Source: Marinicella sp.
GTDB lineage: Bacteria > Pseudomonadota > Gammaproteobacteria > Xanthomonadales > Marinicellaceae
Reading direction: 5' to 3'
DNA length: 64,000 nucleotides
NCBI GenBank assembly: GCA_965230295.1
Contig: OZ246001.1
Span: forward strand, 1,248,001 to 1,312,000
Of the stretch, positions 1,214 through 14,910 are shown in pieces. A program made the position numbers and the translations under genes. The stretch's first letter is position 1; each line of letters opens with the position of its first letter. Below the pieces are notes generated by a model, which saw only the letters and a list, made by a program, of their open reading frames with translations, was not told the origin of the DNA and ran no database searches.

Positions 1214-2434
1214 TCAGCCATGGCTGACTTCATAGCCAAATGGATCATCGATGGAATGCGATGGTTCAGTGAACCACTTAGGACCCGTGCTGGTCATGTA
1301 GAAGTGGTCTTCCAAACGCACACCAAACTCACCAGGCACACACAACATCGGCTCATTGGAAAAACACATGCCCACATCCAAAGGTGTTTGGTCGCCCTTG
1401 ACCAAATAAGGCCCTTCATGGATGTCCATGCCGATGCCGTGACCGGTGCGGTGGGGCAATCCTGGGGTTTGGTATTCAGGACCAAATCCTTGAGAAGCCA
1501 GGAATTGTCGAGCTGCCAAGTCTGCCTTTTCACAGGGTTGGCCCAACCGAGCTGCCGCAAAAGCCTTGGCTTGGGCGTTTTTTTCGGCCAACCATATCTC
1601 ACGGTGTCGTTCCGTCGGCTCGCCATATACATAGCTGCGGGTGATGTCTGAAATGTAATGTTCAACCATGCAGCCGGTATCAATCAATACCATGTCACCG
1701 TGCTCCAAGGATTTTGGGTTTTTAACACCATGCGGATAAGCGGTGTCTTCGCCAAACAAAACAATGCAAAAATAGGATCCTTTTGGGGCTCCAACTGCTT
1801 GGTGGGCTTGGTTGATAAAATCAGTGACTTCTTGAGTACTGATCCCGTCTCTGAGTATACGAGCCGCCGCTTTGTGCACCTGCAAAGTCATGGTTTTGGC
1901 AGTTTGTAATAAACTCAATTCCTGAACAGATTTTCGACTGCGGCAGTATTGACTGACCGCTTGTCCATTTTGAAATTGAGTGTCTGGGCTGGCCCCCTTC
2001 AATTGAGCGTACATATTGAATGGTAAGGATTCATCCAACGCCAGGGTGTTGATCCCATAAGCTTTGATTTGTTCAGCCAGCAGCTCAAAAGGGCTTTCAT
2101 GTTCCTGCCAGCCCAACACGGGTCCAGTCAGTTGCATGAAACCTTGCAAGGTACCCATTTCAAAATGAGGTGAGATATAAACCAATTCACCGGTGGCAGT
2201 TAACAATGCCCCGACCAGTCTTTCGCTGGGATGCCAATGGGTGCCGGTGAAGTAGCTGAGGTTGGTGCCAGCATGGATATACAAAGCATCCCAACCTTTG
2301 TCATTCAAACGAGCGGTTGCCCGGTTAATCCTGTCTTGATACTCAACCAAGCTTATGGGCTTAACAGAGCCCGTCATGTTGGTTAATTTGGCCAATTCTG
2401 TTTGGGCATCGCTGCCACCAATTCCAATGGTCAT
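1214..2434 (-). CDS. Xaa-Pro peptidase, M24 family
   Basis: Motifs LIDTGC, SDITR, HRTGHGIGMDIHE, SNEP and GVRLED of the pita-bread metallopeptidase fold, with an N-terminal creatinase-like domain. Confidence 0.9.
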   Translation of the reverse strand: MTIGIGGSDAQTELAKLTNMTGSVKPISLVEYQDRINRATARLNDKGWDALYIHAGTNLSYFTGTHWHPSERLVGALLTATGELVYISPHFEMGTLQGFMQLTGPVLGWQEHESPFELLAEQIKAYGINTLALDESLPFNMYAQLKGASPDTQFQNGQAVSQYCRSRKSVQELSLLQTAKTMTLQVHKAAARILRDGISTQEVTDFINQAHQAVGAPKGSYFCIVLFGEDTAYPHGVKNPKSLEHGDMVLIDTGCMVEHYISDITRSYVYGEPTERHREIWLAEKNAQAKAFAAARLGQPCEKADLAARQFLASQGFGPEYQTPGLPHRTGHGIGMDIHEGPYLVKGDQTPLDVGMCFSNEPMLCVPGEFGVRLEDHFYMTSTGPKWFTEPSHSIDDPFGYEVSHG

Positions 2435-2613: not shown

Positions 2614-3405
2614 ATGCTTTTGGATACAATCTTACACATCATCAGATTCCTGTTGCGGATCATGGCCTTTGTATTGTCTTTGGTCTTTGTGTTGCCGTTT
2701 GTGATTTTTGGCATCTTACTGGCAAAACTGTTTCGCAATCATGACACCAATGAATTCATCCTGGTTTATTGGTCCAGGTTGTTGTGTTTTATTTGTGGTC
2801 TAAAAGTTTATGTCCATGGCCAAAAACCCGCTTCACCGGTCTTGCTGGTGGCCAATCATGTCTCCTGGTTAGACATTCCCATCATTCATTCATTGATGTT
2901 GGCAGGTTTTGTGGCCAAAAGCGAAATTAAGTACTGGCCCATCATAGGCTGGGTGACCATGGTCGGCGACACCTTGTTCCTTAAACGTGGCAGTGCTGAG
3001 TCCCGCAAAGGGGTTTTGACTCAGATAAAAAAACGATTGAACAGTGGTCGTTCTGTGGCTGTATTTCCAGAAGGCACTGTGACTGATGGCAGTCATCTAA
3101 GGACATTTCATCGCCAACTGATCCATGCAGCGGTTGAAACTGAAACACCCATTTTACCGGTTGCCATAAAATTCTTAAATAAAGACGGCAGTCGCAATGA
3201 CCAGGTAGGGTTTTTAAATGATGAATTTTTCTTAACCCATGTTTGGCGCATCTTGAGTTTACCCAATTCTGTGGTTGAGATTCACTGTGGTGAGTTGGTT
3301 ACTGATTTTGACTCAGGTGCACGAGCTGTGACATTACAATCCAGATCTTACATTGAACAGGAGTTGTTGAAGAATGATTATATGTCAGCCCCCAATCAGG
3401 CCTAA
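2614..3405 (+). CDS. Lysophospholipid / 1-acyl-sn-glycerol-3-phosphate acyltransferase family protein
   Basis: NHVSWLD (HX4D) and FPEGT motifs with an N-terminal TM segment. Start placed at in-frame ATG 2614; the ORF track starts at 2560. Confidence 0.88.
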   Translation: MLLDTILHIIRFLLRIMAFVLSLVFVLPFVIFGILLAKLFRNHDTNEFILVYWSRLLCFICGLKVYVHGQKPASPVLLVANHVSWLDIPIIHSLMLAGFVAKSEIKYWPIIGWVTMVGDTLFLKRGSAESRKGVLTQIKKRLNSGRSVAVFPEGTVTDGSHLRTFHRQLIHAAVETETPILPVAIKFLNKDGSRNDQVGFLNDEFFLTHVWRILSLPNSVVEIHCGELVTDFDSGARAVTLQSRSYIEQELLKNDYMSAPNQA

Positions 3406-4333
3406 AAACAAGCACCTCCAATCCATCCTGGCCAGTTCAAAAGTTCGTTTGTTGCGATTACGTAAGGGCAATCCTGTGAATGAAAACCAGGTAGAACAAA
3501 CCCTACAGAACCCACACGCCACTTTGTTGGGCTATTACACACAAAACCCCAATCCATCAGATACTGTCGCTATTTTGTTACATGGCTGGGAAGGCAGCTC
3601 TGACTCAACCTACATTCAATTGCTGGCTGATTCATTGTACCGCGAAGGTTTAGACATTTATCGACTGAACCTGCGTGACCATGGTGATTCGCATCACATG
3701 AATGAAGATTTGTTCCATTCGTGTCGCATCGAAGAAGTGGTTCATGCAGTTCAAGACATCCAAAAACAATTCCCAGATAAAAAATTCATCCTATGTGGCT
3801 TTTCATTGGGTGGCAATTTTGCTCTCAGGGTCGCTGCCAGGGCACAACAGGCCAAACTCGATTTTAAACATGTTTTTGCTGTTTCGCCGCCTATCATTCC
3901 CAAGAACAGCATGCAAGCCATTCATGGCTCCAAGTTATATAACAAATACTTTCTTCGTAAGTGGAAACGATCCTTACACATCAAGAACAACTTATTTCCC
4001 CACATTTTTGCTGACCACCAATGGCAAGCTGAAGAGAATCTGGAGCGATTGACCCAGATGCTGATTGTGGCACATACTGAGTACACCAGTACTGATGATT
4101 ATTTCAATGGCTATTCGATCACTCCAGATGTGATCAGAGCCATCACCCACCCAACTCATGTCATCACCGCATGGGATGACCCCGTGATTCCATTCGAAGA
4201 TTTTAGTACAATTGACCGCTTACCTCAGATCAAACTGTTGACCACTGCCCATGGCGGGCATTGCGGTTTTATTCAAGGATTGAGCATGAGGTCATGGATT
4301 GAAGACCACATCATTCAAGAGATAAAGCAATGA
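3374..4333 (+). CDS. YheT-like alpha/beta hydrolase
   Basis: HLQSIL, HGWEGS, GFSLGG nucleophile elbow, DDPVIP and GGHCGF. Confidence 0.88.
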   Translation: MIICQPPIRPKNKHLQSILASSKVRLLRLRKGNPVNENQVEQTLQNPHATLLGYYTQNPNPSDTVAILLHGWEGSSDSTYIQLLADSLYREGLDIYRLNLRDHGDSHHMNEDLFHSCRIEEVVHAVQDIQKQFPDKKFILCGFSLGGNFALRVAARAQQAKLDFKHVFAVSPPIIPKNSMQAIHGSKLYNKYFLRKWKRSLHIKNNLFPHIFADHQWQAEENLERLTQMLIVAHTEYTSTDDYFNGYSITPDVIRAITHPTHVITAWDDPVIPFEDFSTIDRLPQIKLLTTAHGGHCGFIQGLSMRSWIEDHIIQEIKQ

Positions 4334-6333
4334 GCCAAATAGAAGAGATAAAAAAACTACATCAAGCTGGGCAGTTTGAAGCTGCCATCAAAGGTTATCA
4401 TGACATATTAACCGCAGAACCTAACAACGATGAGGCCCATTTCGGTATGGCCCATGCCTGCAGCCGCATCAATGACCTTGAATTGGCTTTGAAACATGCC
4501 AAAGAAGCAGTGAACCTGTCACCCAACTCAGATCGCTACCAACAATTCAAAGGCCAGATGTTGATGGCCAATGGCCAGTTGGATGACGCCATGAAAGCAT
4601 TCAAGCGATCAATCAAAGAGAACCCAAACCTGTTTTTTTCATATTTGGCCGTGGGTGACATATACGCCATTAAAAATGAATCCAACAAAGCCAAGAACAA
4701 CTACAAAATGGCATTGAAAGTCCACAGCAATGGCGTCCCGGCCATCACCAAACTGGCCAAATTGCTGTTGATAGAAGGTGACTACAACGGTGCTGAGGAT
4801 TTACTTCAACAATCAGAATTACAATACCCCAATGACCCCAATATCAAACTGCACATGGGCATTTTAAAGTTAGAGCAGGGCGAAGAAGGTTTTGCTGAAT
4901 TGTATTTCAAAAAATTGTTGGAAGACGACCCGAACAACCATGTGGCCAAAGCCTATTTGAGTTCAAGTTTACTGCGCAGCGACCCAGAAAAAGCCACACA
5001 ACTGATCACTGAAATGCTGAACCAACGGATACAAATTCCTGAATTAATGGCTGCATTGGGTAAATGGTATGCCAGTACCAACAACCACCAGGAAGCCATC
5101 AGGTACCTGACTCCAATCTGCCAATCTGGTTTGGCTTACCCCAGTTGGCTGTTAACCCTGGCGCAAACCAGTGTGGGCAATTTACAACCCAACACTGCCA
5201 TGGGGATTTTGAATGAAGTGTTGAAACGGGGCGAAAACAGCCGGGCCTTGTTGATGTTAGGCCAAATTCACCAAATCAATGCCAACTACCCTGCTGCGAT
5301 CAAAACCTACCAAAAAATCAACCCCAACGATCAATTCTTCCAAGAGGCTCAATTGATGCAGGCCGAATGCCACTATTCTGCGACCGACTATCCGGCCGTG
5401 ATCAAACAATTGGATGAAGTGCTGGCCGCCAAACCTGATCACAACACAGCGGTTAAGCTGAAACTTAACACCCTCTCACAATTAGGCAAAGTTGATGATG
5501 CGCTGGCCCTGATTGACTCAATTGACAACGATAAACAAACCCCCTCTTTCAATCAGTTGATGCATTTGTACGCCGGCTTACTGCTTGATGAGAAACATGA
5601 CTATGACCAGGCCTGGGAACATTTTGTCAAATTGGAACACCCCAAGCCGCAAACCATTGAAATGTTGAGCAGCGAGGATGAAAAAGCCATACAGGCTTTA
5701 CCTTCTCCACCAGCAAGTTCGGTATTCAGGTTTGTTTTTACCGACCCTGCCACCGGACACCATGATTTTCTTAATTGGCTGCTGCAAAATAAAGTCACAC
5801 CATTAATTGACCGCTTCACCAACAAAGCCAGGGGGGATGTATTTTCTCAGCAGTGGACAGTGAAGATGCTGAATGATTTGAATGAAGGTCAAATGCATTT
5901 GTGGCGCAAAAAATACATCAAACAATTGAATTTTGCACTGCAAAATGATGCTGAAATGGTGGTCGACTTCCTGCCGTTTTCGCCCATCAACGCAGCCATC
6001 ATCAAGCGCATTTTCCCACAAGCACATGTTTTGGTGTTGAGCAGAAACATTGCTGATTTGAGACTACACAACCAAGTCTTTGGCAGCCATCAGGTCCATT
6101 ATTCACATTTTTCAAAAGTGGCCAACCAAATGATTGCCATGAACCCCAATGTGGCATTGGTTGATATGGATGCCTGGCAGGCCGGAGATGACCTGGCTTT
6201 GAAAAACATCCACAAGACCTTTGGAGAATATGTGAAGCCATTCGCCATGGCCCAAGTTACGCCGTTGGATCGTTTGATGTTTCCATTCATGCATTGGAAA
6301 AATTATCAAAAACAACTCAACGCCAGTTCCTAG
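4330..6333 (+). CDS. TPR-repeat protein with a C-terminal degenerate sulfotransferase-like domain
   Basis: About 430 aa of TPR-like helical repeats. The C-terminus has VDFLP...IKRIFPQAHVLVLSRNIAD, resembling the sulfotransferase pattern DKxP...FPxA...RxPxD. ATGA overlap with the upstream gene. Confidence 0.75.
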   Translation: MSQIEEIKKLHQAGQFEAAIKGYHDILTAEPNNDEAHFGMAHACSRINDLELALKHAKEAVNLSPNSDRYQQFKGQMLMANGQLDDAMKAFKRSIKENPNLFFSYLAVGDIYAIKNESNKAKNNYKMALKVHSNGVPAITKLAKLLLIEGDYNGAEDLLQQSELQYPNDPNIKLHMGILKLEQGEEGFAELYFKKLLEDDPNNHVAKAYLSSSLLRSDPEKATQLITEMLNQRIQIPELMAALGKWYASTNNHQEAIRYLTPICQSGLAYPSWLLTLAQTSVGNLQPNTAMGILNEVLKRGENSRALLMLGQIHQINANYPAAIKTYQKINPNDQFFQEAQLMQAECHYSATDYPAVIKQLDEVLAAKPDHNTAVKLKLNTLSQLGKVDDALALIDSIDNDKQTPSFNQLMHLYAGLLLDEKHDYDQAWEHFVKLEHPKPQTIEMLSSEDEKAIQALPSPPASSVFRFVFTDPATGHHDFLNWLLQNKVTPLIDRFTNKARGDVFSQQWTVKMLNDLNEGQMHLWRKKYIKQLNFALQNDAEMVVDFLPFSPINAAIIKRIFPQAHVLVLSRNIADLRLHNQVFGSHQVHYSHFSKVANQMIAMNPNVALVDMDAWQAGDDLALKNIHKTFGEYVKPFAMAQVTPLDRLMFPFMHWKNYQKQLNASS

Positions 6334-6336
6334 TCT

Positions 6337-7095
6337 ATGCTGTTAGATGTGCTGCAATGGGTGGTGTTGTCCTTGGTTCAAGGGCTGACTGAATTCCTGC
6401 CCATTTCATCTTCAGCACATTTGATTCTGGCATCCAAATTTGCCAGCTGGCAAGACCAAGGTCTGGTGATGGACATCGCGGCTCATTTTGGTTCTTTGTT
6501 GGCCGTGATGATTTATTACCGCAAAGAGATCACCAAACTGTTATCGGGTCAAGACTGGCCTTTGTTCCAACAACTGTTGGTAGCCAGCATACCCATCGCC
6601 TTGACCGGCATCTTGCTGGCCGGGGTGATTGAAGAGCACCTTCGTGAAACCTGGATCATTGCTGCTGCTTCAGCACTGTTTGGTGTGCTGTTGTGGTTCA
6701 GTCAAAGATACAGTAAAAACCGATCTATGGACATGAAAGCGGCCGTCCTGATTGGCTTGGCACAATGCCTGGCTTTGATTCCGGGTGCTTCACGATCAGG
6801 CGTAACCATGACAGCTGGTATGGCCTTGGGATTGAATAAATCACAGGCCGCCAAATTTTCATTTCTACTGGCCATTCCTGCCATCTTGATGACCAGTGCT
6901 TACGGCGCGATGAAACTGATTGAAGCACCACAAACTTATGATCTGATGGGCGTGATCACCATAGTTTCTTTGAGTTTTTTCTCGGCTTGGATGTGCATTC
7001 ATTGGTTCATGAAATACATAGAACGCATTGATTTTATTTGGTTCATGCACTACCGCTTGTTGTTGGCTATACTGATACTATTAACACTCATCTGA
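6337..7095 (+). CDS. uppP: Undecaprenyl-diphosphate phosphatase
   Basis: QGLTEFLPISSSAHL and PGASRSG signature motifs; polytopic membrane protein. Confidence 0.95.
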   Translation: MLLDVLQWVVLSLVQGLTEFLPISSSAHLILASKFASWQDQGLVMDIAAHFGSLLAVMIYYRKEITKLLSGQDWPLFQQLLVASIPIALTGILLAGVIEEHLRETWIIAAASALFGVLLWFSQRYSKNRSMDMKAAVLIGLAQCLALIPGASRSGVTMTAGMALGLNKSQAAKFSFLLAIPAILMTSAYGAMKLIEAPQTYDLMGVITIVSLSFFSAWMCIHWFMKYIERIDFIWFMHYRLLLAILILLTLI

Positions 7096-7109
7096 AAGAC
7101 TGTAATTAT

Positions 7110-8003
7110 ATGACTGGCATTGATTTACCCAAAGACATCATTTTTGAAACCCGTTATGGCAACATAGCCGGCTTACAATGGGGTAAAGGCAACACCGAAT
7201 CAGTTCTGGCCCTGCATGGATGGTTAGACAACGCCGCCAGTTTTTGGCACCTGGCACCTTTGTTGGCAGCCCATGACATGGAAATCACAGCGATCGACTT
7301 TCCTGGCCACGGTCACTCAGACCACCGTGCTCCAGGACACAATTACGGCTTCATAGATTACGTGATGGACTTGCAGGCCGTGTTGCAACAAATGGAGCAG
7401 CCGACCACCTTACTGTGTCATTCCATGGGTGCAGCCATAGCCGTCATGTATGCGGCGGCTTTTCCCGAACATGTCAAACAGTTGGTATTGATTGAAAACT
7501 TAGGACCTGTGCCGCCCTTTCAACCAGGCAAAGCAGCAGAATCATTGCGAGAGGCATTGAAACTTTGGGGTAAGCACAGTCTAGAGCATAAACGCTTTTA
7601 TTCAGACATCGATAAAGCCATCAAAGCCAGACAAGAAGCGACACCGATTGATACAGAAATCATCAGACCCATGGTTGAACGCGGTTTGTGTCAAACCACC
7701 CAAGGCTATCACTGGCGAACCGATAAGCGTTTGCGGTTACGCAGCTTTTTCAGGATGGCTGAAGAACAAATTCAGGAGTTTTTGGCCGCCACCCAAGTAC
7801 CCGCTCAACTGATCATTGCAGAGCCCAAAACATACGCCTTGCAATACCCCATGGTTGATGCCCGCTTAGCTGCACTGGACCCAACCCGGTTTGATCAAAT
7901 TCCAGGCGATCATCATTTACATATGGGCCAAGCCAAGCTTGTATCCGAAGCCATATTGGCCTTCCTCAACCGCACTCAAGATAACAGCAGTGATGCAAGC
8001 TGA
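7110..8003 (+). CDS. Alpha/beta fold hydrolase
   Basis: LHGWLDNAASF, DFPGHGHS, CHSMG and GDHHLH. Start moved to ATG 7110, just after the uppP stop. Confidence 0.88.
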   Translation: MTGIDLPKDIIFETRYGNIAGLQWGKGNTESVLALHGWLDNAASFWHLAPLLAAHDMEITAIDFPGHGHSDHRAPGHNYGFIDYVMDLQAVLQQMEQPTTLLCHSMGAAIAVMYAAAFPEHVKQLVLIENLGPVPPFQPGKAAESLREALKLWGKHSLEHKRFYSDIDKAIKARQEATPIDTEIIRPMVERGLCQTTQGYHWRTDKRLRLRSFFRMAEEQIQEFLAATQVPAQLIIAEPKTYALQYPMVDARLAALDPTRFDQIPGDHHLHMGQAKLVSEAILAFLNRTQDNSSDAS

Positions 8004-9141
8004 TTTTCCAGATTTATTGGATCAACACATGCGCAGGATCCGAGCCAGCGCTTCGGCAGTTGCTTTGGAAATCGGGATGAGTCGAGAAGCCGTAAACAAT
8101 TGGCGCAGGGGGTATTCCAAACCAAGCAAGAAACACCGCGACAAGGTGGTTGCTTGCTCAAATTACCTGCGATTAAGTGAAGCGGAATGCAATGAGTTGT
8201 TGGCATCCGTCGGTTTTGATCACGAATATGCCCTGTATCAATCCACCAACCAGTCCCAAGACCACTTGTTCATCCAGCTGGAACAGGCTCAACCATACCC
8301 CATATTGATGGTATTGACTCAGGACCACCTGGACCAACCTCCACAAAAACAACTGATCGTTGAGGCGGCTCAAACCAAATACCCTGATCGCCAGACCCTG
8401 CACGTCCAATTACCTTATTCAAACAACATCACAGTCGCTGATTTTTTTCACTTCATTGGCCAGCAAATGGGATTGATGCAGGTGCATGATGAATTGAGCT
8501 TTGAATTTGCTCTTAATGATCTATTACAGGCCACTGAAATCAATTTGATCATCACCCGTTTTGAACAAGGTAACCAAACATGTCGCAACCTGTTATCCGG
8601 CGTTTTAAGGAATTTATGCGAAATGCACGTCGGACGAATTCATTTGGTTCTGTGTGGCGGCGAACAACTCTCGGCTTTGAAATACGCACAAGGCGATTTA
8701 TCTTTATTGAACATTGCCAGTGCTTACATGATGACTTTTGATTTGGCTCAATGGCTGGCCGTTCAAACAATCATCAATCATTCATTTGATCACCATCAAG
8801 TGATGTATGAACTGATAGGAAATCACCCATCAATGGCCTCTTCCTTATTTGCCGCCATTCAAGAAGGGCACGATCATGAAGCACTCATACAAATGGTGAT
8901 GAACAGTGATGTGCTGTTCAGTGATTTCAATCAAGTCATCCGACAGTCCGGTAAAGCCCCATTGCAAGAAAAATTAACTGCTGACGGTCTGGGACCTTAT
9001 CGACCTTACATCCAAGACCCGGTGCTGCGCCAATTGTTTTGGTTGAATTTAATTGGTAAGAATCAAGACAATCAGCTGGTATGGCATTCAGATACCATCC
9101 GACAGGTGGGCATTAATTTGTTGGCAGAACAATCACTTTGA
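7993..9141 (+). CDS. XRE-type HTH fused to a probably inactive STAND/AAA-like domain (putative regulator)
   Basis: N-terminal ASAVALEIGMSREAVNNWRRG is a Cro/C1-type HTH. The rest has P-loop-like strand/helix order but no GxxxxGK, a Walker-B-like LIITRFE and a GNHP (GxP) motif. Start at ATG 7993. Confidence 0.65.
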   Translation: MQADFPDLLDQHMRRIRASASAVALEIGMSREAVNNWRRGYSKPSKKHRDKVVACSNYLRLSEAECNELLASVGFDHEYALYQSTNQSQDHLFIQLEQAQPYPILMVLTQDHLDQPPQKQLIVEAAQTKYPDRQTLHVQLPYSNNITVADFFHFIGQQMGLMQVHDELSFEFALNDLLQATEINLIITRFEQGNQTCRNLLSGVLRNLCEMHVGRIHLVLCGGEQLSALKYAQGDLSLLNIASAYMMTFDLAQWLAVQTIINHSFDHHQVMYELIGNHPSMASSLFAAIQEGHDHEALIQMVMNSDVLFSDFNQVIRQSGKAPLQEKLTADGLGPYRPYIQDPVLRQLFWLNLIGKNQDNQLVWHSDTIRQVGINLLAEQSL

Positions 9142-11258
9142 AAGGCGATACATCGATCCAAAGAATCTTACTGATCATTGTGCTCAGCGTTTTGACTTTG
9201 CCTTATGTGATGCAAGTACTGTTGTCCCGAGGCAGCTTGTTACCTGATGAAGCCGAATTAGAAACCTTACAATGGTTCACTGAATTGAAAAGCATCAGAA
9301 ACCTCGTCACCCATCACCAAAATCAAACCAACCAATGGCCACAATCGCTCAACGAACTGATCTACAACTTTGGTAAACCCCGTTACCAAGAACTGGATCT
9401 TTCGATTGAATTTCAAATCACCAGCACACCCGGTAAGCGCATCAAAAGTAACGAATTACAAGGCTCACAAATTGTTTTGAAATATGGCACTGGTTGGCAC
9501 TGCGTGCCTGATAAAACGACCATTCCTGATGCCTACAAACCCATCGAATGTGGCGGTTCATTGCGAAGCACAACCCAACGTTCTTTACCATCGGAAAAGA
9601 CCATGCACATCATTGCCATCATTGCCCTGCTGGGCATTGTGATTGGGGTGGTGTTTTATCACCCAACCATCAGATTATTGCGAGGTCGTGAATTCTCCTT
9701 AGCCACCCAAAGATTGGTGGATCTCAGAAAGCTGTCTCTGTTAACCCGGTTATCAGGTTTACAACCCAACATCCTGCAGGCCAATGATTTGAACAGCCGG
9801 TCCTGGCAGAAGGTTGCTACTTTTCGGTCATTGCCTGCGAAACAAAAGATCAATTGGTTCAAAAGGGTGTGGCCTACCCAACAGATTAAAAATGTCAAAC
9901 CCCAACTGTTTCATGTTCAACTCGACCCTGAGTTTGTATTGAACATGGATAATTTGTATCTCTACATGGCTGACAAGGGCATCAGCATCAATCGCATCAA
10001 AAGCCACCTCAAGCAAGCCAACATAGACCATCAAGCAGTGCTGATTTGGGCAGAAGACCCGGCATTGAGCCAACAATTACAAGTTCATCGGTCTCGGTTC
10101 CAACAGCCCGTTCTACTGCCCAACCAACAGCAAATGACTCAGTTACTGGTGGCCAAATATGCCAGCCAAACATGGATTGATTTGATGGTCTCATTCCTGC
10201 CGATCAACCAATTGTCTCCTTATCAGGGCAAGGGCGGGATTTTAAAATCCAGCCACTTCTATGGACGCGAGCACATTTTAGATCAACTGAAAAACAACAC
10301 CCAATCGTGCTTCTTGTTGGTCGGTGGTCGACAATTGGGTAAGACATCGATTCTCAAAGCTTATGAACGACTGCTGAAACATTCAGCCAGACACCACTGT
10401 TTTTACATTTCCATGTCTGATGATCGATTAATGGCCAGGTTGGCGTACCACTTAAAGATCACTGAATATGCTGATTTGACAGACTTGCTCAACCAATACC
10501 ATCAACTCAATCCTGGTATTGAGTTGGTCTTGCTGCTGGATGAAACAGATCGATTCATCGCGACTGAAGTGACCCATGATTTTCCTTTGTTGGCAGAGGT
10601 TCGCGCGTGTGCTGAACAAGGGTTGGGTCAAATGGTGTTTGCCGGTTTCTGGGATTTGTATGCCAGTGCTGTTTTGGATTACCAGTCACCGATCAGAAAT
10701 TTTGCTGAAGTCATCACTGTAGGCGCTCTTCAAGCCATGCCAGCCAAGCGCTTATTAACAGAACCCATGACTGTTCTGAAACAGCATTACAGCAACCAGG
10801 AAGTGATTGAATATGCGTTGAACCAAACCGGCCATCGGGCCAATTTACTCAACCTGATTGGTGAGTCTTTGGTCGAACAACTGGCCCAAAAAGCGCAGCC
10901 AATCGATCAGACAATGATTGATGAAGCCTTACAAAGTCAGACCATGTTTGATGCCTTACAAGGCTGGTCCCAATTGACCAGAGATCCTGATGCCTCTGCA
11001 TTGGACCGCATGGTTGTGTATCTGACATTTATCCATCAACAAATTGACTTGACACTGATCTTGCAGCATTTACAACAAGCTCAAGTCCCAATCGATGCTG
11101 AACAACTGAAACAAGCATTGCAGCGACTGCGTTTGGCCCACATCTTGGAAAAAAACAACGATCATTACTGTTTTTCAGTGCCATTATTTACTCAACAACA
11201 CAGCGTACAGGAAGCCAAGGCCCTGTTAGCACAAGAGTGCCAAAACCACCACAGTTGA
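9138..11258 (+). CDS. Membrane-anchored STAND-class ATPase with an extracytoplasmic pilin-like domain
   Basis: TM near aa 9-28; helix plus WHC...PIEC pilin-like disulfide loop (aa 120-138); second TM near aa 156-174; SPY...FYGRE, Walker A GGRQLGKTS (aa 396), Walker B LLLDETD and a wHTH-like tail. The TTG start overlaps the upstream TGA. Confidence 0.75.
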   Translation: MKGDTSIQRILLIIVLSVLTLPYVMQVLLSRGSLLPDEAELETLQWFTELKSIRNLVTHHQNQTNQWPQSLNELIYNFGKPRYQELDLSIEFQITSTPGKRIKSNELQGSQIVLKYGTGWHCVPDKTTIPDAYKPIECGGSLRSTTQRSLPSEKTMHIIAIIALLGIVIGVVFYHPTIRLLRGREFSLATQRLVDLRKLSLLTRLSGLQPNILQANDLNSRSWQKVATFRSLPAKQKINWFKRVWPTQQIKNVKPQLFHVQLDPEFVLNMDNLYLYMADKGISINRIKSHLKQANIDHQAVLIWAEDPALSQQLQVHRSRFQQPVLLPNQQQMTQLLVAKYASQTWIDLMVSFLPINQLSPYQGKGGILKSSHFYGREHILDQLKNNTQSCFLLVGGRQLGKTSILKAYERLLKHSARHHCFYISMSDDRLMARLAYHLKITEYADLTDLLNQYHQLNPGIELVLLLDETDRFIATEVTHDFPLLAEVRACAEQGLGQMVFAGFWDLYASAVLDYQSPIRNFAEVITVGALQAMPAKRLLTEPMTVLKQHYSNQEVIEYALNQTGHRANLLNLIGESLVEQLAQKAQPIDQTMIDEALQSQTMFDALQGWSQLTRDPDASALDRMVVYLTFIHQQIDLTLILQHLQQAQVPIDAEQLKQALQRLRLAHILEKNNDHYCFSVPLFTQQHSVQEAKALLAQECQNHHS

Positions 11259-11269
11259 CAAAACGTCAA
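11255..11269. promoter_or_regulatory. Palindrome TTGAC-N5-GTCAA, possible operator
   Basis: Perfect 5-bp arms overlapping the ATPase stop codon and lying upstream of the next two genes. Short enough to arise by chance. Confidence 0.25.
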
Positions 11270-11409
11270 GTCTACACATCAAGCACTGGACAACATCACC
11301 ACGACACGGTTAATACCTCTTCGTAAAATGCCCATAATCTGATCACGACAGCATACTTTCATGGCTGTTGGTCAGTGTAAACACAACCCATAACCAAAAG
11401 GAAAGAACC

Positions 11410-11910
11410 ATGAAAAATCATTTACCAGTGATCGGCTTGATGGGCTTAATGATCACCCAATGGAGCCAGAGTCATGCTGCAGAAATCAACACAAAAGATG
11501 TCATCGCCATCCATGAATCATTCATCGATGCCATCAAAGATCGGGATTTCACAGTGTATGAAAAGTACTTACACAAAGACACCAAAATTTTTGTTGATTT
11601 AGACCCAGCACCAGGCAATGAATTACAACGAATAGAACTGGATGAATTCAAAGAATTGGCGTTGATGTCATTGCAATTGGCAGATGAGATTGATGTTGTT
11701 GAAGACCTCATCAAAGTGGACCATAACAAACAGAATAACGAAGTGGCCATTTACTCAAGAAGTACAGTTAACATGACCATGATGGGCACCCACATCACTG
11801 AAATTGCTGAAGGAATTACTGTCTACGGGGTGAGAGAAGGGTCAATCAAAATATTGTCCATCAGCGATCAGGTGATTGAATCATCAATCAAAAAAGCCAC
11901 AAATGATTAA
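11410..11910 (+). CDS. Secreted NTF2/SnoaL-like (DUF4440-like) protein
   Basis: Signal peptide ending SHA-A; helix FIDAIKDRDF followed by long beta strands. AAGGA RBS before ATG 11410. Confidence 0.6.
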   Translation: MKNHLPVIGLMGLMITQWSQSHAAEINTKDVIAIHESFIDAIKDRDFTVYEKYLHKDTKIFVDLDPAPGNELQRIELDEFKELALMSLQLADEIDVVEDLIKVDHNKQNNEVAIYSRSTVNMTMMGTHITEIAEGITVYGVREGSIKILSISDQVIESSIKKATND

Positions 11911-11956
11911 TTATTAAATGTAGAAAATCGGCCTCAGTGGCCACAGGAGCAATACC

Positions 11957-12478
11957 ATGTTAAAAATTAAAGTCAAAGACAGCACCCACCAAGTCATCTC
12001 TGTAATCAGCAAATACTTATGTATCATCGGATTCATTGGAACCGTTGGATTTTTTGGCTACTCGATGATTAAAAATTATCAGGAAGCGACCACCATCTTG
12101 AATGATGCCCAAGTGATTGATGCGGATTTGATGTTGACTGATGTGACTGTTGAAAGTGGTCGCAAAGGCCGGTCCAAAAATGTTTATGAGTTCACTTATT
12201 CTTATGAAGCTGGCGGACAACTGTATGAGAAGTCTTTCACCACCAGTGAAAACAACGCCGATAAATACGTTGATGAAACCACCATCCCGGTGGCCTATGC
12301 CAAATCCAATCCAGAACTGTCCGGCAAACTCAAGCAACTGGAGAAAAACAGCAGCATAGGCAGTTTAACCTGGCGTGGATTGGTGGCCTTGTTGGGTTTG
12401 ATGTTTCTAGCCGCAGTGATACATGGCATCATCACCGGTGTCTTGTTCATCAACAAAGACAATCCAGAAACCGAATAA
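11957..12478 (+). CDS. DUF3592-like membrane protein
   Basis: TM, then a beta domain (YEFTYSYEAGGQLY...IPVAYAKSNP), then TM. AGGAG RBS. Confidence 0.65.
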   Translation: MLKIKVKDSTHQVISVISKYLCIIGFIGTVGFFGYSMIKNYQEATTILNDAQVIDADLMLTDVTVESGRKGRSKNVYEFTYSYEAGGQLYEKSFTTSENNADKYVDETTIPVAYAKSNPELSGKLKQLEKNSSIGSLTWRGLVALLGLMFLAAVIHGIITGVLFINKDNPETE

Positions 12479-12500
12479 AGTAACTGACTGACACCTCTAA

Positions 12501-12536
12501 GCAGAGGTTTCTGTCTGATCTGGCAGTGACCTCTGC
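12501..12536. terminator. Hairpin between convergent genes
   Basis: GCAGAGGT...ACCTCTGC arms with an inner CTGTC/GGCAG stem; no clear U-tract. Confidence 0.45.
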
Positions 12537-12538
12537 AC

Positions 12539-14029
12539 TCAAGATTTCACATCTTCTTTAGTTACCCAGATTTCTGTGCGGTTGTTCCGATAACGCCCCA
12601 CTTCACTGTCATTGCTGTCGATGGGCAACTGATTGCCCAAAGCGATTATTTCCACATTTCTGATCCCCCTTTGTTTCAACTCATAAGCCAACAACTTACT
12701 GCGGATGAAAGCCCGTGTTTGGTCGGCTTTTTCATTCTGAGATTCACCCGCCGAAAAACCGATTAAAGTGATTTTCTTGTGCGGTGTTTGATTCAGGTAA
12801 GTCACCAGGTGATTGATGTCTTGAGCAGACTTGTTGTCAATTTCTGCTCGGTCAGATCGCATCCTAAAGGTGGTGGAGAGCCGAACTCCGTTCAATGCAA
12901 TTTGCTGATATTTTATTGGAAATTCATGATCAATATAGGGCAGCGTGCTGGTGATTTTTTGTGGTATAAAACTGACTTGCTCAACCAATTGTTGTCCTGT
13001 GCCCGAAACAGCAAAATCTATCAACCCCGACACATGACTGTTTTCAGAACGTTCTTTATTGGCATACAAAAACAAACGCCGACTGAGGGCATAATCTTCT
13101 GAACTGATTGAAAACTGTTTGGGCTCGATGGCGGCAATCCCCACATCAGCAGATACTTTTAGAATCATGTCTTTTGAGGCATAGGCCAAACCGGTAAAAC
13201 CAATTGCTGATTCGTCAAGAGCCACTGATTTCGCCAACAACTCATTGGATTCATATCGGCTGGCTGGTGCCAGCTGTTTGTTGTATTTTTTTAATACCAG
13301 AGATTTAAAAGTATCATAGGTTCCAGATTGGTCATCCCTGGCATACAATGACATGGGTAAATCTTTTCCTCCTAATTCGGACCAGTTGGTTATTTCACCC
13401 GCAAAGACCTTTGACAATTGATCCACTGTGATAGTTTTTATTGGGTTGCCGGGATGGGTGATGATGGCCAGGCCATCCAATGCAATCACATGTTCGCTTT
13501 CCGAATTGGTCATGTCACCATATTTGATCAACAAATCTAAATTCTCACTGTGTTTAATCCGCCTTGAAGACATCGCCACATCGGTTTTGTTGGCAATCAA
13601 GGATTTGAATCCCGTACTTGATCCATGAGCCTTGATTTCTATGGCCACCACTTTGTTCTGATCTGGCAAAAATCCAATGACCTGCATTTCATTTTCGGTG
13701 GTTAAAGGCTTGCTGATGGTGACCTCTGAACCCAGCTGTCTGATATAGGCTGCAGCCAATGCAGGTGCCAATTTGTCACCAATGGTGTTTGATCCATCCA
13801 TACGTAAAATGACTTCTGCTTGGGCAGTTAACAAATCTGGAGGGGCGAGGCGCGTGGCGGTTTTCTCGACAACTGGTGTTTGGGTTTCAGTTTGAAAGAC
13901 CTCTTGCTGATCAACGGCTTCATCATCGGGATGATTCTCTGTAAAAAATTTAAAATAAAAGACAATGGCACCGAAGATCAAAAAGGCAACGATGAGGATT
14001 TCAAACAAATAACTTTTGATTTGATTCAT
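12539..14029 (-). CDS. PstS-like phosphate-binding protein fused to an OmpA-like peptidoglycan-binding domain
   Basis: GSNTIG, HGSSTG, MSSR and RDDQSGT (PstS-type motifs); C-terminal GRYRNNRTEIW (OmpA_C-like); N-terminal TM anchor. Confidence 0.85.
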   Translation of the reverse strand: MNQIKSYLFEILIVAFLIFGAIVFYFKFFTENHPDDEAVDQQEVFQTETQTPVVEKTATRLAPPDLLTAQAEVILRMDGSNTIGDKLAPALAAAYIRQLGSEVTISKPLTTENEMQVIGFLPDQNKVVAIEIKAHGSSTGFKSLIANKTDVAMSSRRIKHSENLDLLIKYGDMTNSESEHVIALDGLAIITHPGNPIKTITVDQLSKVFAGEITNWSELGGKDLPMSLYARDDQSGTYDTFKSLVLKKYNKQLAPASRYESNELLAKSVALDESAIGFTGLAYASKDMILKVSADVGIAAIEPKQFSISSEDYALSRRLFLYANKERSENSHVSGLIDFAVSGTGQQLVEQVSFIPQKITSTLPYIDHEFPIKYQQIALNGVRLSTTFRMRSDRAEIDNKSAQDINHLVTYLNQTPHKKITLIGFSAGESQNEKADQTRAFIRSKLLAYELKQRGIRNVEIIALGNQLPIDSNDSEVGRYRNNRTEIWVTKEDVKS

Positions 14030-14133: not shown

Positions 14134-14910
14134 TTAGCCACCAAAAAAACAGCCCGGCATGGTTGATTGGATGTCTTCAAAGTCTCGTGAAGTACATTGC
14201 CACACCAATTGGTGGTTTCTCTCTCTGGGAATCAATACGATCTTGCCACCATCAACACCTGATTTAGCTGTGTATTCAATGGTGATGCGACCGCCTTTAG
14301 AAACAGCTATTGATTTCACTGTGTCATTGGCATAAGACTCAGGTCTGGGTAACCTTAACTTGGTGTTTGAATCTGGAAAACGTCCTTCCATCATATAATA
14401 TTCAGCCACATAGGTTTTGATCATCACTCCAGTTTGTAGTCCGGACGCCCGATAACTGGCATGCAATGCTTGTTTTTGTAGCACTTCATATTGAGCTTTC
14501 ATCTGTTGTTCTTGCTGTTGTTTCGCTGCCAAATCTTCAACCACAGCATCCAGTGTTTCTATTTGTCCTTCAATCACTGTGGATTGTTGCTTTGATTCTT
14601 CCATGCGCTGTTCAATCGCTTCAGACTGACGTTTGGATTCTGCCAGGCGTTGATCTAATAAATCACTTTGCTGCTCAGTCGCTTGCAATTGTTGTTCAAG
14701 GATTTGGGCTTGATTTTCCGCGGCTTCAATCAAAGCTTGTTGTTGATTTACTTGTTCAGCATCCTGAGTGCTGACTGACTTTTGTAACTGTTGTAAAGAC
14801 TCGTGCAGTTGATTCCGTTCTTCTAGCCACTGGCGTTTTTGTTGGTGATTGTCATACAACAAATAAGTCACTAACAGAAGTAATAGGCCTGCTGTTATCT
14901 TGATGTACAT
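14134..14910 (-). CDS. Membrane-anchored coiled-coil protein with a C-terminal pilin-like globular domain
   Basis: N-terminal TM, about 130 aa of Q/E-rich coiled coil, then KTYVAEYYMMEGRFP...GRITIEY...LVWQC...MPGC, typical of a type IV pilin head. No prepilin G/FTLIE motif. Confidence 0.75.
   Translation of the reverse strand: MYIKITAGLLLLLVTYLLYDNHQQKRQWLEERNQLHESLQQLQKSVSTQDAEQVNQQQALIEAAENQAQILEQQLQATEQQSDLLDQRLAESKRQSEAIEQRMEESKQQSTVIEGQIETLDAVVEDLAAKQQQEQQMKAQYEVLQKQALHASYRASGLQTGVMIKTYVAEYYMMEGRFPDSNTKLRLPRPESYANDTVKSIAVSKGGRITIEYTAKSGVDGGKIVLIPRERNHQLVWQCTSRDFEDIQSTMPGCFFGG

Follow-up and report, generated by a model that had tools for sequence, protein, structure and literature searches.

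STAND proteins are nucleotide-dependent oligomerising switches, and the STAND/NLR-type switches of immunity and signalling are known as cytoplasmic sensors. The subject of the present work is a pair of overlapping genes, referred to as gene 1 and gene 2, in a stretch of 64,000 nucleotides from the genome of a Marinicella species (GenBank assembly GCA_965230295.1, contig OZ246001.1, positions 1,248,001 to 1,312,000 of the forward strand); this whole stretch is called the window, and positions are counted from its first letter. The two genes probably encode one NLR-like STAND signalling unit which is divided between two proteins and extends across the inner membrane. In this proposal gene 2 would be the receptor, with a periplasmic pilin-like head between two transmembrane (TM) segments, a juxtamembrane domain and an active nSTAND1-like nucleoside triphosphatase (NTPase), while gene 1 would be both adaptor and output, an inactive module that carries a Cro/C1-type helix-turn-helix (HTH) at its N-terminus.

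The closest described systems also involve STAND modules that have lost their catalytic motifs. The accessible sections of Kaur et al. (2021, PMC8195603) describe a two-gene mobile operon in which an active STAND NTPase is combined with an eroded one, with a GT4 or HEPN domain on the inactive partner, so that the statement of a first-pass annotation of this DNA, that active/inactive STAND pairs occur in bacterial conflict systems, is in print. The iSTAND and iSTAND2 modules of MoxR-vWA ternary systems are described in the sections available of that paper and of an earlier one (Kaur et al. 2020, PMC7159879), and the latter also notes HTH domains in the effector positions of conflict systems. 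The kind of system to which the present pair belongs, that of STAND conflict and signalling systems, is already known.

Results

An overlapping pair of conserved genes

Gene 1 (7993..9141, forward strand) was delimited by its open reading frame (ORF) and translation and encodes 382 amino acids; gene 2 (9138..11258, forward strand) starts with TTG, encodes 706 amino acids, and was delimited by its ORF, an alignment of orthologues and an AlphaFold2 model. The four nucleotides TTGA are common to both genes, as the first-pass annotation had noticed, because the TGA stop of gene 1 (9139-9141) and the TTG start of gene 2 (9138-9140) overlap. The first 11 nucleotides of gene 1 in turn coincide with the end of an alpha/beta-hydrolase gene that lies upstream (7038-8003). 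The start assigned to gene 1 at 7993 lies 12 codons 5' of an invariant MRRIRAS motif, and it fits the family, since in nearly all of 79 related loci a start codon is found 12-13 codons before this motif (in a few, 14-16). The TTG start of gene 2 aligns with ATG starts in its orthologues. Given that gene 1 has 236 homologues and that the NTPase part of gene 2, used alone as a query, has 73 homologous proteins, both can be taken from their sequences to be real genes and not chance ORFs, and neither protein matched any family in a scan of NCBIfam.

A DNA-binding domain on an inactive STAND-like module

The gene 1 protein is composed of an HTH domain of the Cro/C1 (XRE) type (residues 1-75; 7993..8217, forward strand), which was assigned from Pfam matches in the family and from the AlphaFold2 model, and of a second region (residues 89-382; 8257..9138, forward strand) in which the model, its fold matches and a motif alignment of 47 members place an alpha/beta domain resembling a nucleotide-binding domain (NBD), a helical domain (HD) and a winged-helix domain (WHD). 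The HTH_3 match of the window protein itself is sub-threshold (E 0.0048); within the family HTH_3 is found in 28 of 32 members and HTH_31 in 13 of 32 (best E 7.1e-6). AAA_35 is weakly matched in 10 of the 32 (best E 0.0014) and in several relatives of the TIR type described below. The family alignment has a mean column identity of 52% and an almost invariant N-terminus, and the HTH is the best-conserved part of the protein (mean pairwise identity 0.70).

In the model, which was built from the family alignment (pLDDT 89.8, pTM 0.84), the N-terminus forms the five helices of the Cro/C1-type fold. The alpha/beta domain that follows has five strands (104-109, 134-139, 183-188, 216-222 and 243-247) and is succeeded by a helical domain (266-329) and a winged helix (343-381), which is the NBD-HD-WHD order of STAND and AAA+ proteins. 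The motifs that would bind a nucleotide are missing from this scaffold: the P-loop position reads hhLL.Q....., GxxxxGK[ST] is absent from all 46 aligned members whose sequence covers this position, and the Walker B site has the pattern hhhhh[ST][RG]FE.G (LIITRFE in the window protein), while at the GxP position, where the window protein has GNHP, the residues G276, H278 and P279 are invariant in the family. Anywhere in the protein, GxxxxGK[ST] occurs in only 5 of the best 150 gene-1-type representatives, and in 2 of these 5 it lies in a fused C-terminal ATPase. By this loss of the motifs for binding nucleoside triphosphates (NTPs) the whole gene 1 family is predicted to be inactive. The first-pass annotation had thus read the protein correctly in both halves, as an XRE-like HTH and as a STAND-like domain with a degenerate Walker B and without the Walker A lysine. 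A profile search of PDB sequences with gene 1 gave nothing significant (best E 0.59).

A second protein that matches the HTH region of gene 1 (E 1.1e-7) is encoded elsewhere in the same genome (L162, G000:C1:3130796-3131110, ORF 1354-2259, forward strand); its C-terminal domain differs from the gene 1 module, and from its sequence it looks like an XRE regulator of the MmyB type.

A membrane STAND NTPase with a pilin-like head

All parts of the gene 2 protein are encoded on the forward strand. A first TM segment (residues 7-29; 9156..9224), placed by hydropathy, the model and an alignment to the solved pilin 8p3b, is equivalent to the membrane part of the pilin alpha-1 helix. It is followed by a periplasmic pilin-like head (residues 30-152; 9225..9593), assigned from Pfam matches of orthologues and the model, by a second TM segment from hydropathy and the model (residues 153-173; 9594..9656), by a juxtamembrane cytoplasmic domain recognised by its conservation and in the model (residues 174-365; 9657..10232), and by the NTPase module, with NBD, helical domain and winged helix, which rests on Pfam matches in orthologues and on Foldseek (residues 366-706; 10233..11255). 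Hydropathy alone puts the TM segments at 7-25 and 155-173, so that the topology first proposed for this protein, a TM helix, an exported domain and another TM helix, agrees with both hydropathy and model.

The catalytic motifs that gene 1 lacks are present here. Walker A, GGRQLGKTS (residues 396-404; 10323..10349), and Walker B, LVLLLDETD (residues 463-471; 10524..10550), had been recognised as intact in the first-pass annotation, and across 22 orthologues the former (as GGRQLGK[ST]S) and the Walker B residues D468, E469 and D471 are invariant; so are a GxRANL motif and, in the exported part, W67, P68, C122 and C138. In the AlphaFold2 model (pLDDT 83.3, pTM 0.65) the NBD has strands at 391-396, 419-425, 462-468, 498-503 and 524-528, and is followed by helices (533-633) and a winged helix (638-705, with helices 638-647 and 654-666 and strands 670-673 and 676-679), which bears out the suspicion that the protein ends in a domain like a winged HTH. 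The top Foldseek matches of the model are 2qen (1.7e-9, target TM-score 0.61) and 2fna (7.2e-9, target TM-score 0.65), after which come ORC/Cdc6, NLR resistosomes and CED-4. In Pfam, AAA_22 is matched by all 22 orthologues, nSTAND1 (PF20703) by 10 of 22 (best E 8e-9) and Pilin by 4 of 22 (best E 1.5e-6), and the window protein matches only AAA_22 (E 2.1e-6), AAA_14 and AAA_16. Several relatives with exchanged sensors also match nSTAND1.

The region of about 190 amino acids between TM2 and the NTPase module had been described as a linker. The length was right, but the region (174-365) is a conserved, folded domain, with a helical part and an alpha/beta part in the model (176-359). It has no Pfam match and is also kept in the relatives with exchanged sensors, where the distance from TM segment to Walker A is constant at about 218-240 amino acids, the value for the window protein being 223.

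The description of the protein as pilin-headed holds indirectly: it is supported by the four orthologues with a Pfam match, by the model and by profile comparison, while the window protein has no Pilin match of its own. In the model the helix of TM1 (7-29) is followed by a helix at 38-64 and by strands at 84-87, 93-98, 112-116 and 120-122, a long N-terminal helix with a sheet of four strands behind it. When the gene 2 family profile is compared with PDB sequences the only matches are pilins (E 0.065-0.98), the membrane helix being included in the alignment to 8p3b, and at E 0.065 this best match is only suggestive. The N-terminus reads LKGDTSIQRILLIIVLSVL, and no prepilin leader (class III signal peptide, G-1, F/M+1, E+5) is present in the window protein or in any of the 22 orthologues. 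The head resembles a pilin, but as it lacks this motif it could not be processed and polymerised as one. It is also the fastest-evolving part of gene 2, with a mean identity of 0.26 against 0.59 for the NBD.

Another protein with a pilin domain is encoded nearby on the reverse strand (14134-14910, 258 amino acids). It has an N-terminal TM segment, a long helical stretch rich in Q and E, and a C-terminal Pilin domain (PF00114, E 8.9e-11, residues 156-242); it too is without a prepilin leader. Its linkage to the gene pair is confined to the genus (L001, L004), and a comparison of the gene 2 profile with it was not significant (E 0.035, probability 1.5%).

Relationship between the active and the inactive module

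The models of the gene 1 and gene 2 proteins share their nearest solved neighbours in Foldseek (2qen and 2fna). When deep profiles of 131 gene 1 modules and 92 gene 2 modules were compared with hhalign, 153 columns were aligned at E 1.3e-4 with a probability of 54%, in a register that puts Walker B on the FE motif and GGHP on GxRANL, with LRxLSE..G common to both before the next strand. Because the deep profiles align in register and the nearest folds are shared, there is moderate support, from sequence and models, for regarding the pair as an active module and a degenerate paralogous one.

Linkage and distribution of the pair

Genome loci were collected by a pattern scan of one genome per species, and the best 80 of the 162 stretches with gene 1 relatives were compared. 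Gene 1 and gene 2 are adjacent on one strand in 78 of the 80 (tblastn), and the other two (L032, L053) end just after gene 1. The two genes are strictly linked. Whether homologues are neighbours elsewhere had been named as a check in the first-pass annotation, and they adjoin in every informative genome locus (78 of 78). The start of gene 2 overlaps the stop of gene 1 in 74 of the 78 loci, by 4 nucleotides in 44 and by 16 in 30, in a count that takes the start nearest to the stop and so leans toward overlap. A reading of gene 1 and gene 2 as unrelated neighbours is rejected on the adjacency in 78 of 80 loci together with the relatives with exchanged domains.

The loci span the Gamma- and Betaproteobacteria (Marinicella, Lysobacterales, Pseudomonas, Comamonadaceae, Oxalobacteraceae, Rhodocyclaceae and others). 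Within the genus the pair is present in 6 of 24 genomes, and in none of 20 genomes from other genera of the family. In an evenly drawn sample of 400 genomes from the class, 4 gave matches, among them the window's own and an unpublished one; of the three apart from the window's own, two match in the dead module only, and in the third (G063) one match starts inside the HTH region and a second is to the module only. The pair is single-copy in the 4.008-Mb one-contig genome. No gene 1 relative was found among 72,556 plasmid records, in which gene 2 had one distant match limited to the NBD, and no gene 2 relative was found among 50,697 phage records, a set searched with gene 2 only. The complete pair does occur on 2 of the 2.9 million contigs of IMG/VR (L165 and L166, 9.6 and 11.1 kb), which are filed as viral.

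The remaining neighbours of the pair vary by lineage. In eight Comamonadaceae loci (L008, L009, L012, L017, L018, L020, L044, L047) repeat proteins are encoded directly downstream of gene 2 on the same strand, either with ankyrin repeats (476-577 amino acids) or with leucine-rich repeats (about 540 amino acids); this may be lineage synteny only. In most lineages without the DUF3592 gene described below, the gene directly upstream of gene 1 encodes a small membrane protein of no known family, and three different families are represented (L010, 4602-5438 and 5507-5959; L050, 5144-5893; L031).

A larger family with exchanged sensors and outputs

Relatives of gene 2 that are 30-40% identical in the NTPase part carry other N-terminal domains. 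The exchanged outer domains include NHL repeats (P0174), TPR (P0181) and WD40 propellers (P0193, P0194), as well as beta-rich regions without a Pfam match which are called Ig-like from sequence alone. These proteins have an N-terminal signal peptide or TM segment, then the sensor, then one TM segment, so that the sensor repeats lie outside the membrane and N-terminal to the nucleotide-binding oligomerisation domain (NOD). In a quick maximum-likelihood tree the sensor-swapped forms make up one clade (15 rows, support 99).

On the side of gene 1 the exchange is of outputs. A search of 1.84 billion representatives with the gene 1 profile, at E up to 0.001, gave 649 gene-1-type representatives. 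The best 150 of these 649 comprise 27 full HTH forms, 4 HTH fragments, 36 short or truncated proteins and 83 in which the dead module stands behind at least 100 amino acids of another N-terminus. Pfam was applied to 84 proteins of this last kind: 66 have a TIR domain, some with an additional CHAT, caspase, trypsin, ParA or hydrolase domain, and the rest have CHAT alone (3), a calcineurin-like phosphoesterase (Metallophos; 3), EAD2 (1), HTH_3 (1), FlxA (1), a hydrolase with AAA_21 (1) or no match (8). In a FastTree phylogeny of 131 dead modules, 25 of the 27 HTH forms fall into one clade (support 98) beside a TIR-dominated family, a placement that has midpoint rooting only. A few relatives (P0250, P0285, P0310) have an AAA_15/AAA_21 ATPase, resembling ABC and OLD proteins, joined to the C-terminal end of the dead module, which suggests a different active partner fused in cis.

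The two kinds of exchange meet at the same loci. The neighbourhoods of 80 metagenome loci with sensor-swapped receptors were examined, those with at least 1.5 kb of upstream sequence being counted as informative (n=52), and in 45 of the 52 a gene-1-type gene (E <1e-20) lies upstream on the same strand. Of the 35 loci without such a partner, 28 have less than 1.1 kb of upstream sequence and are uninformative. The heads of the partners are TIR (L081, L085, L087, L114-116, L121, L123, L150), Metallophos (L103), trypsin (L139), TM helices or unknown domains (L096, L130), and HTH (L092, L093, L097, L099, L109, L119, L126); in the neighbouring receptors the sensor is WD40 in most cases and NHL in some. 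HTH adaptors are paired both with NHL receptors (L093, L119) and with receptors that have a TM segment and no outer domain (L097, L099, L153). The survey for exchange of sensors and effectors that the first-pass annotation had recommended therefore finds both, the sensors on gene 2 and the outputs on gene 1.

As the same two-gene core runs with other sensors and outputs, the window pair can be placed, from sequence, as the branch of a larger two-gene family that has a transcriptional output and a pilin-like sensor. The remaining branches have the appearance of devices for abortive infection or cell suicide that respond to a trigger outside the cell. This wider family, in which TIR predominates, had escaped the first-pass annotation, as had the DUF3592 gene that accompanies the pair. 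A cytoplasmic version is seen at L109, where two tandem genes for an HTH with a dead module (3007-4164 and 4375-5559) precede a gene (6007-7059) for a soluble NTPase of 350 amino acids which has no TM segment, sensor or juxtamembrane domain.

The accessory cassette and its setting

The pair is part of an accessory cassette of 4.6 kb (7967..12561) which also encodes an exported protein and a DUF3592 protein. Its limits are given by blastn of a genome of the same genus without the pair (L164, G022) against the window: about 51 nucleotides stand there in place of 7967-12561, and the hydrolase gene and a PBP-OmpA gene lie side by side. The predicted exported protein (11368..11910, forward strand, 180 amino acids) is known from its ORF, has a start like a signal peptide and belongs to no Pfam family; its homologues were found only in Marinicella loci (L001, L002). 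The DUF3592 gene (11957..12478, forward strand; Pfam E 8.5e-7) encodes a membrane protein with two TM segments, and a terminator-like hairpin, found by a consensus scan only, lies just 3' of it (12493..12508, forward strand). The cassette has no anomaly in GC content (0.442 against 0.446, standard deviation 0.009) and no flanking repeats, and the rest of the window is housekeeping in character (BacA, cytochrome bc1, SspA/B, HrpA, LigA, ZipA).

Homologues of the DUF3592 protein occur in exactly the same 6 of 24 genomes of the genus as gene 1, an observation which is weak alone because the six may be close kin. A homologue adjoins the pair in 17 of the 80 genome loci and in one metagenome locus (L025, L027, L028, L034, L037, L049, L055, L058, L065, L066, L068, L071, L075, L019, L001, L002, L004, L140). 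It is upstream of the pair in Stenotrophomonas, other Lysobacterales, a metagenome-assembled genome of the Chromatiales and a Pseudomonas, and downstream in Marinicella, and this change of side across lineages suggests a functional link. The DUF3592 protein is likely to be a third component of the system and may be a co-receptor. The available parts of the papers that mention the family are silent on its function.

Two kinds of sequence pattern were seen upstream of gene 1. The palindrome TTGAC-N5-GTCAA(G), 157-214 nucleotides upstream in Tahibacter, Undibacterium and Massilia (L057, L064, L069, L072), was the only pattern to exceed shuffled sequences (four loci against a shuffle maximum of three) and could be a regulator site. 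In six Lysobacterales loci (L050, L066, L031, L049, L057, L080) a promoter-like (G)ATTGAC(A)-N17-TAG(C/G)GT lies about 50-70 nucleotides upstream, and by its sequence gene 1 appears to have its own promoter there; gene 1 of the window starts inside the end of the hydrolase gene. A promoter scan gave 7 sites, no more than in shuffled sequences (mean 10.2).

Discussion

A proposed split signalling unit across the membrane

The assignment of roles to the two proteins follows from what varies in each. Gene 2 can be regarded as the sensor because its variable part consists of ligand-binding folds which lie outside the membrane and evolve fastest (0.26 against 0.59), and gene 1 as the output because its variable part consists of effector domains, among which the HTH is the best-conserved part of the window protein (0.70). 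In the proposed mechanism, a periplasmic cue at the head would be relayed through TM2 and the juxtamembrane domain. The NTPase module of gene 2 would then switch and undergo NTP-dependent oligomerisation at the membrane, as is expected of its class. The dead module of gene 1 would co-assemble with it, and the HTH domains would thereby be brought together, or freed, so that transcription is changed. In the relatives, a domain in the same N-terminal position would cleave NAD+, or cut proteins or nucleic acids. The first-pass annotation had foreseen a transcriptional rather than a toxic output, which fits the finding that most gene 1 relatives carry TIR or protease heads. Its observations are confirmed, and its interpretation is supported in part, for the architecture, the linkage and the exchange of domains.

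A more general proposal, which is advanced only tentatively, is that the family consists of bacterial transmembrane pattern-recognition receptors, made up of an outer sensor, a TM segment, the juxtamembrane domain and the STAND NTPase, which nucleate separate adaptors with TIR, protease or HTH heads through a contact between an active and a dead NOD, by a logic like that of Toll-like receptors with TIR adaptors or of sensor/helper NLR pairs.

Several results weigh against the interpretation of the pair as a split STAND unit with a transcriptional output. The window gene 2 protein itself is not significant for Pfam Pilin or nSTAND1, and both assignments rest on its orthologues. A comparison of shallow gene 1 and gene 2 profiles with hhalign was not significant (E 0.18), and the deeper alignment reaches only the 54% probability given above. 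In 7 of the 52 informative variant loci there is no clear gene-1-type partner (L084, with a weak fragment; L095; L106-L108, one sequence in three samples; L112; and L120, with a stand-alone TIR ORF), which implies that the receptor can have a different partner or none. A search of 48 non-redundant loci for gapped palindromes and k-mers, judged against shuffles, revealed no operator shared by the regions upstream of gene 1, so that the HTH is left without a known target. In PADLOC-DB 2.0, finally, gene 1 has no match and gene 2 matches only PDC-S01 (8.6e-5, over the P-loop region), and in the relatives the models match only TIR, CHAT and Metallophos effector heads; with this result and the housekeeping neighbours, a defence role of the HTH branch has no direct support.

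Alternative interpretations

The strongest alternative keeps the two proteins together but reverses the direction of control: the membrane NTPase would hold the HTH protein at rest through the contact of the two modules, and a signal or nucleotide hydrolysis would release it to the DNA, much as some soluble regulators are controlled by tethering to the membrane. Such sequestration agrees with the strict pairing and the shared fold as well as recruitment does, and chromosomal sites are not easily reached by an HTH protein that is kept at the membrane. The relatives are what make sequestration unlikely. TIR and caspase-type effectors are activated by induced proximity, and the TIR, caspase/CHAT and trypsin heads that occupy the position of the HTH would, on this general knowledge, be switched on by proximity and not by release; if a single mechanism is to serve the whole family, assembly-driven activation is favoured.

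It is less probable again that the block is a defence or conflict cassette in which the HTH protein acts only as a local repressor or autoregulator, the effector being the membrane part of gene 2 or the DUF3592 protein. The patchy distribution (6 of 24 genomes of the genus, 0 of 20 from other genera, 4 of 400 in the class sample), the behaviour of the block as an insertion/deletion cassette, the co-occurrence of DUF3592 with the pair, and the matches of the relatives' effectors to PADLOC effector models would all be expected from such a cassette. It would not be expected, however, that the HTH should stand on the same dead module precisely where relatives have an enzymatic effector, or that it should be the best-conserved part of gene 1, which is unusual for a mere local repressor. 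The search for an operator upstream of gene 1 was negative, only 17 of 80 loci have DUF3592 near the pair, and the window offers no defence-island context.

A third reading makes the gene 2 product an ATPase accessory to a type IV pilus or type II secretion apparatus, which it would join by way of its pilin-like head, and makes gene 1 an ordinary transcription factor for pilus genes. It draws on that head and on the atypical pilin-domain gene 2.9 kb away (14134-14910), but it is rejected as highly improbable, because the same cytoplasmic core carries unrelated outer sensors (WD40, NHL, TPR or Ig-like) or none, the prepilin leader is absent, the neighbourhood in the window has no pilus assembly genes, and the nearby pilin-domain gene is linked within the genus only.

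Significance

If the reading of the pair as a split STAND unit is correct, it would represent a new kinase-free route of transmembrane signalling in bacteria, in which the signal is passed through a dead copy of the switch domain. It would also provide a testable model of how outputs of the TIR, protease and DNA-binding kinds are exchanged on a common scaffold. For such work the HTH branch is a benign starting point, as its output can be followed by RNA-seq and does not kill the cell, and the family supplies natural sensor and output swaps with which induced proximity could be tested. On the more general and tentative proposal of pattern-recognition receptors, a cell so equipped could react to envelope events such as phage adsorption, the attack of a competitor or contact with a neighbour's surface before its cytoplasm is breached. 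The window branch would then be a domesticated, kinase-free pathway from envelope to transcription, with a pilin-like head that could sense the state of the pilin pool or an agent that binds pili.

Comparison with known systems

A characterised system of this architecture had not been known to the first-pass annotation, and none was found in the open-access papers and preprints searched. That search covered main texts and not their supplements, and the STAND clade tables of PMC13581612, in which the accessible sections present a 589-clade STAND phylogeny, may list the gene 2 clade. The available parts of PMC8195603, PMC7159879, 10.64898/2026.10.19.760177, 10.1101/2023.09.22.558884, PMC13581612 and PMC12482557 hold no description of the pair. 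What was not found in print is a receptor that spans the membrane, with a conserved juxtamembrane domain and with its sensor outside and N-terminal to the NOD, in combination with an output on a separate dead-NOD protein whose head is HTH or TIR, and with DUF3592 as a companion.

The nearest parallel is the two-gene operon of PMC8195603, which, in the sections available, likewise has adjacent STAND genes, a variable effector on the partner that has lost its motifs, and a proposed hetero-oligomer. That operon family, compared with the window pair by description only, is near the CR-ATPases and S29/Dap3, mobile and cytoplasmic according to the same sections, whereas the active partner of the window pair is nSTAND1-like, spans the membrane and has an N-terminal extracytoplasmic sensor, and the effectors of its family are HTH, TIR, proteases and a phosphoesterase. 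The iSTAND and iSTAND2 modules resemble gene 1 in the use of a dead STAND module as a scaffold with N-terminal signalling or effector-associated domains. As their available descriptions have it, these systems need a MoxR AAA+ protein and a vWA partner and the dead module is the proposed sensor; the window pair, by comparison, combines an active STAND receptor with a dead module that bears the output. Pfam scans of the genes flanking the pair in the window, and of one representative of each recurrent neighbour family elsewhere, found neither MoxR nor vWA.

The classical STANDs (MalT, AfsR, Avs, bacterial NACHT proteins and NLRs) share with the window family the NBD-HD-WHD core, a repeat sensor, an effector activated by oligomerisation, and outputs of the TIR, protease or HTH kind, and the structural matches of the models include MalT, Avs3/4, CED-4 and plant NLRs. 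In these proteins, however, effector, NOD and C-terminal sensor are joined in one cytoplasmic chain, while the receptor of the window pair has its sensor at the N-terminus, outside the membrane, and its NOD at the C-terminus, and the effector belongs to a separate protein whose NOD is dead. The archaeal ATPase_2 proteins PAB2304 (2qen) and SSO1545 (2fna), the closest in structure, are soluble, single-gene Walker-type ATPases with a sequence identity of 10-15%; to our knowledge the function of neither is established. Cyanobacterial HTH-AAA_35 proteins, which were found as look-alikes by a language model, have an N-terminal XRE-type HTH and then an AAA-like STAND-type domain, as gene 1 does, a likeness which is a lead only and is accompanied by no significant alignment for the window protein.

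In its overall logic the pair can be set beside the histidine kinase/response regulator systems, which likewise couple a membrane sensor with a periplasmic domain to a separate, adjacently encoded cytoplasmic DNA-binding output. The components of phosphotransfer are missing from the pair, neither protein having a Pfam match to HisKA, HATPase_c or the REC receiver at E up to 1, and the coupling between sensor and output would instead be an assembly driven by NTP.

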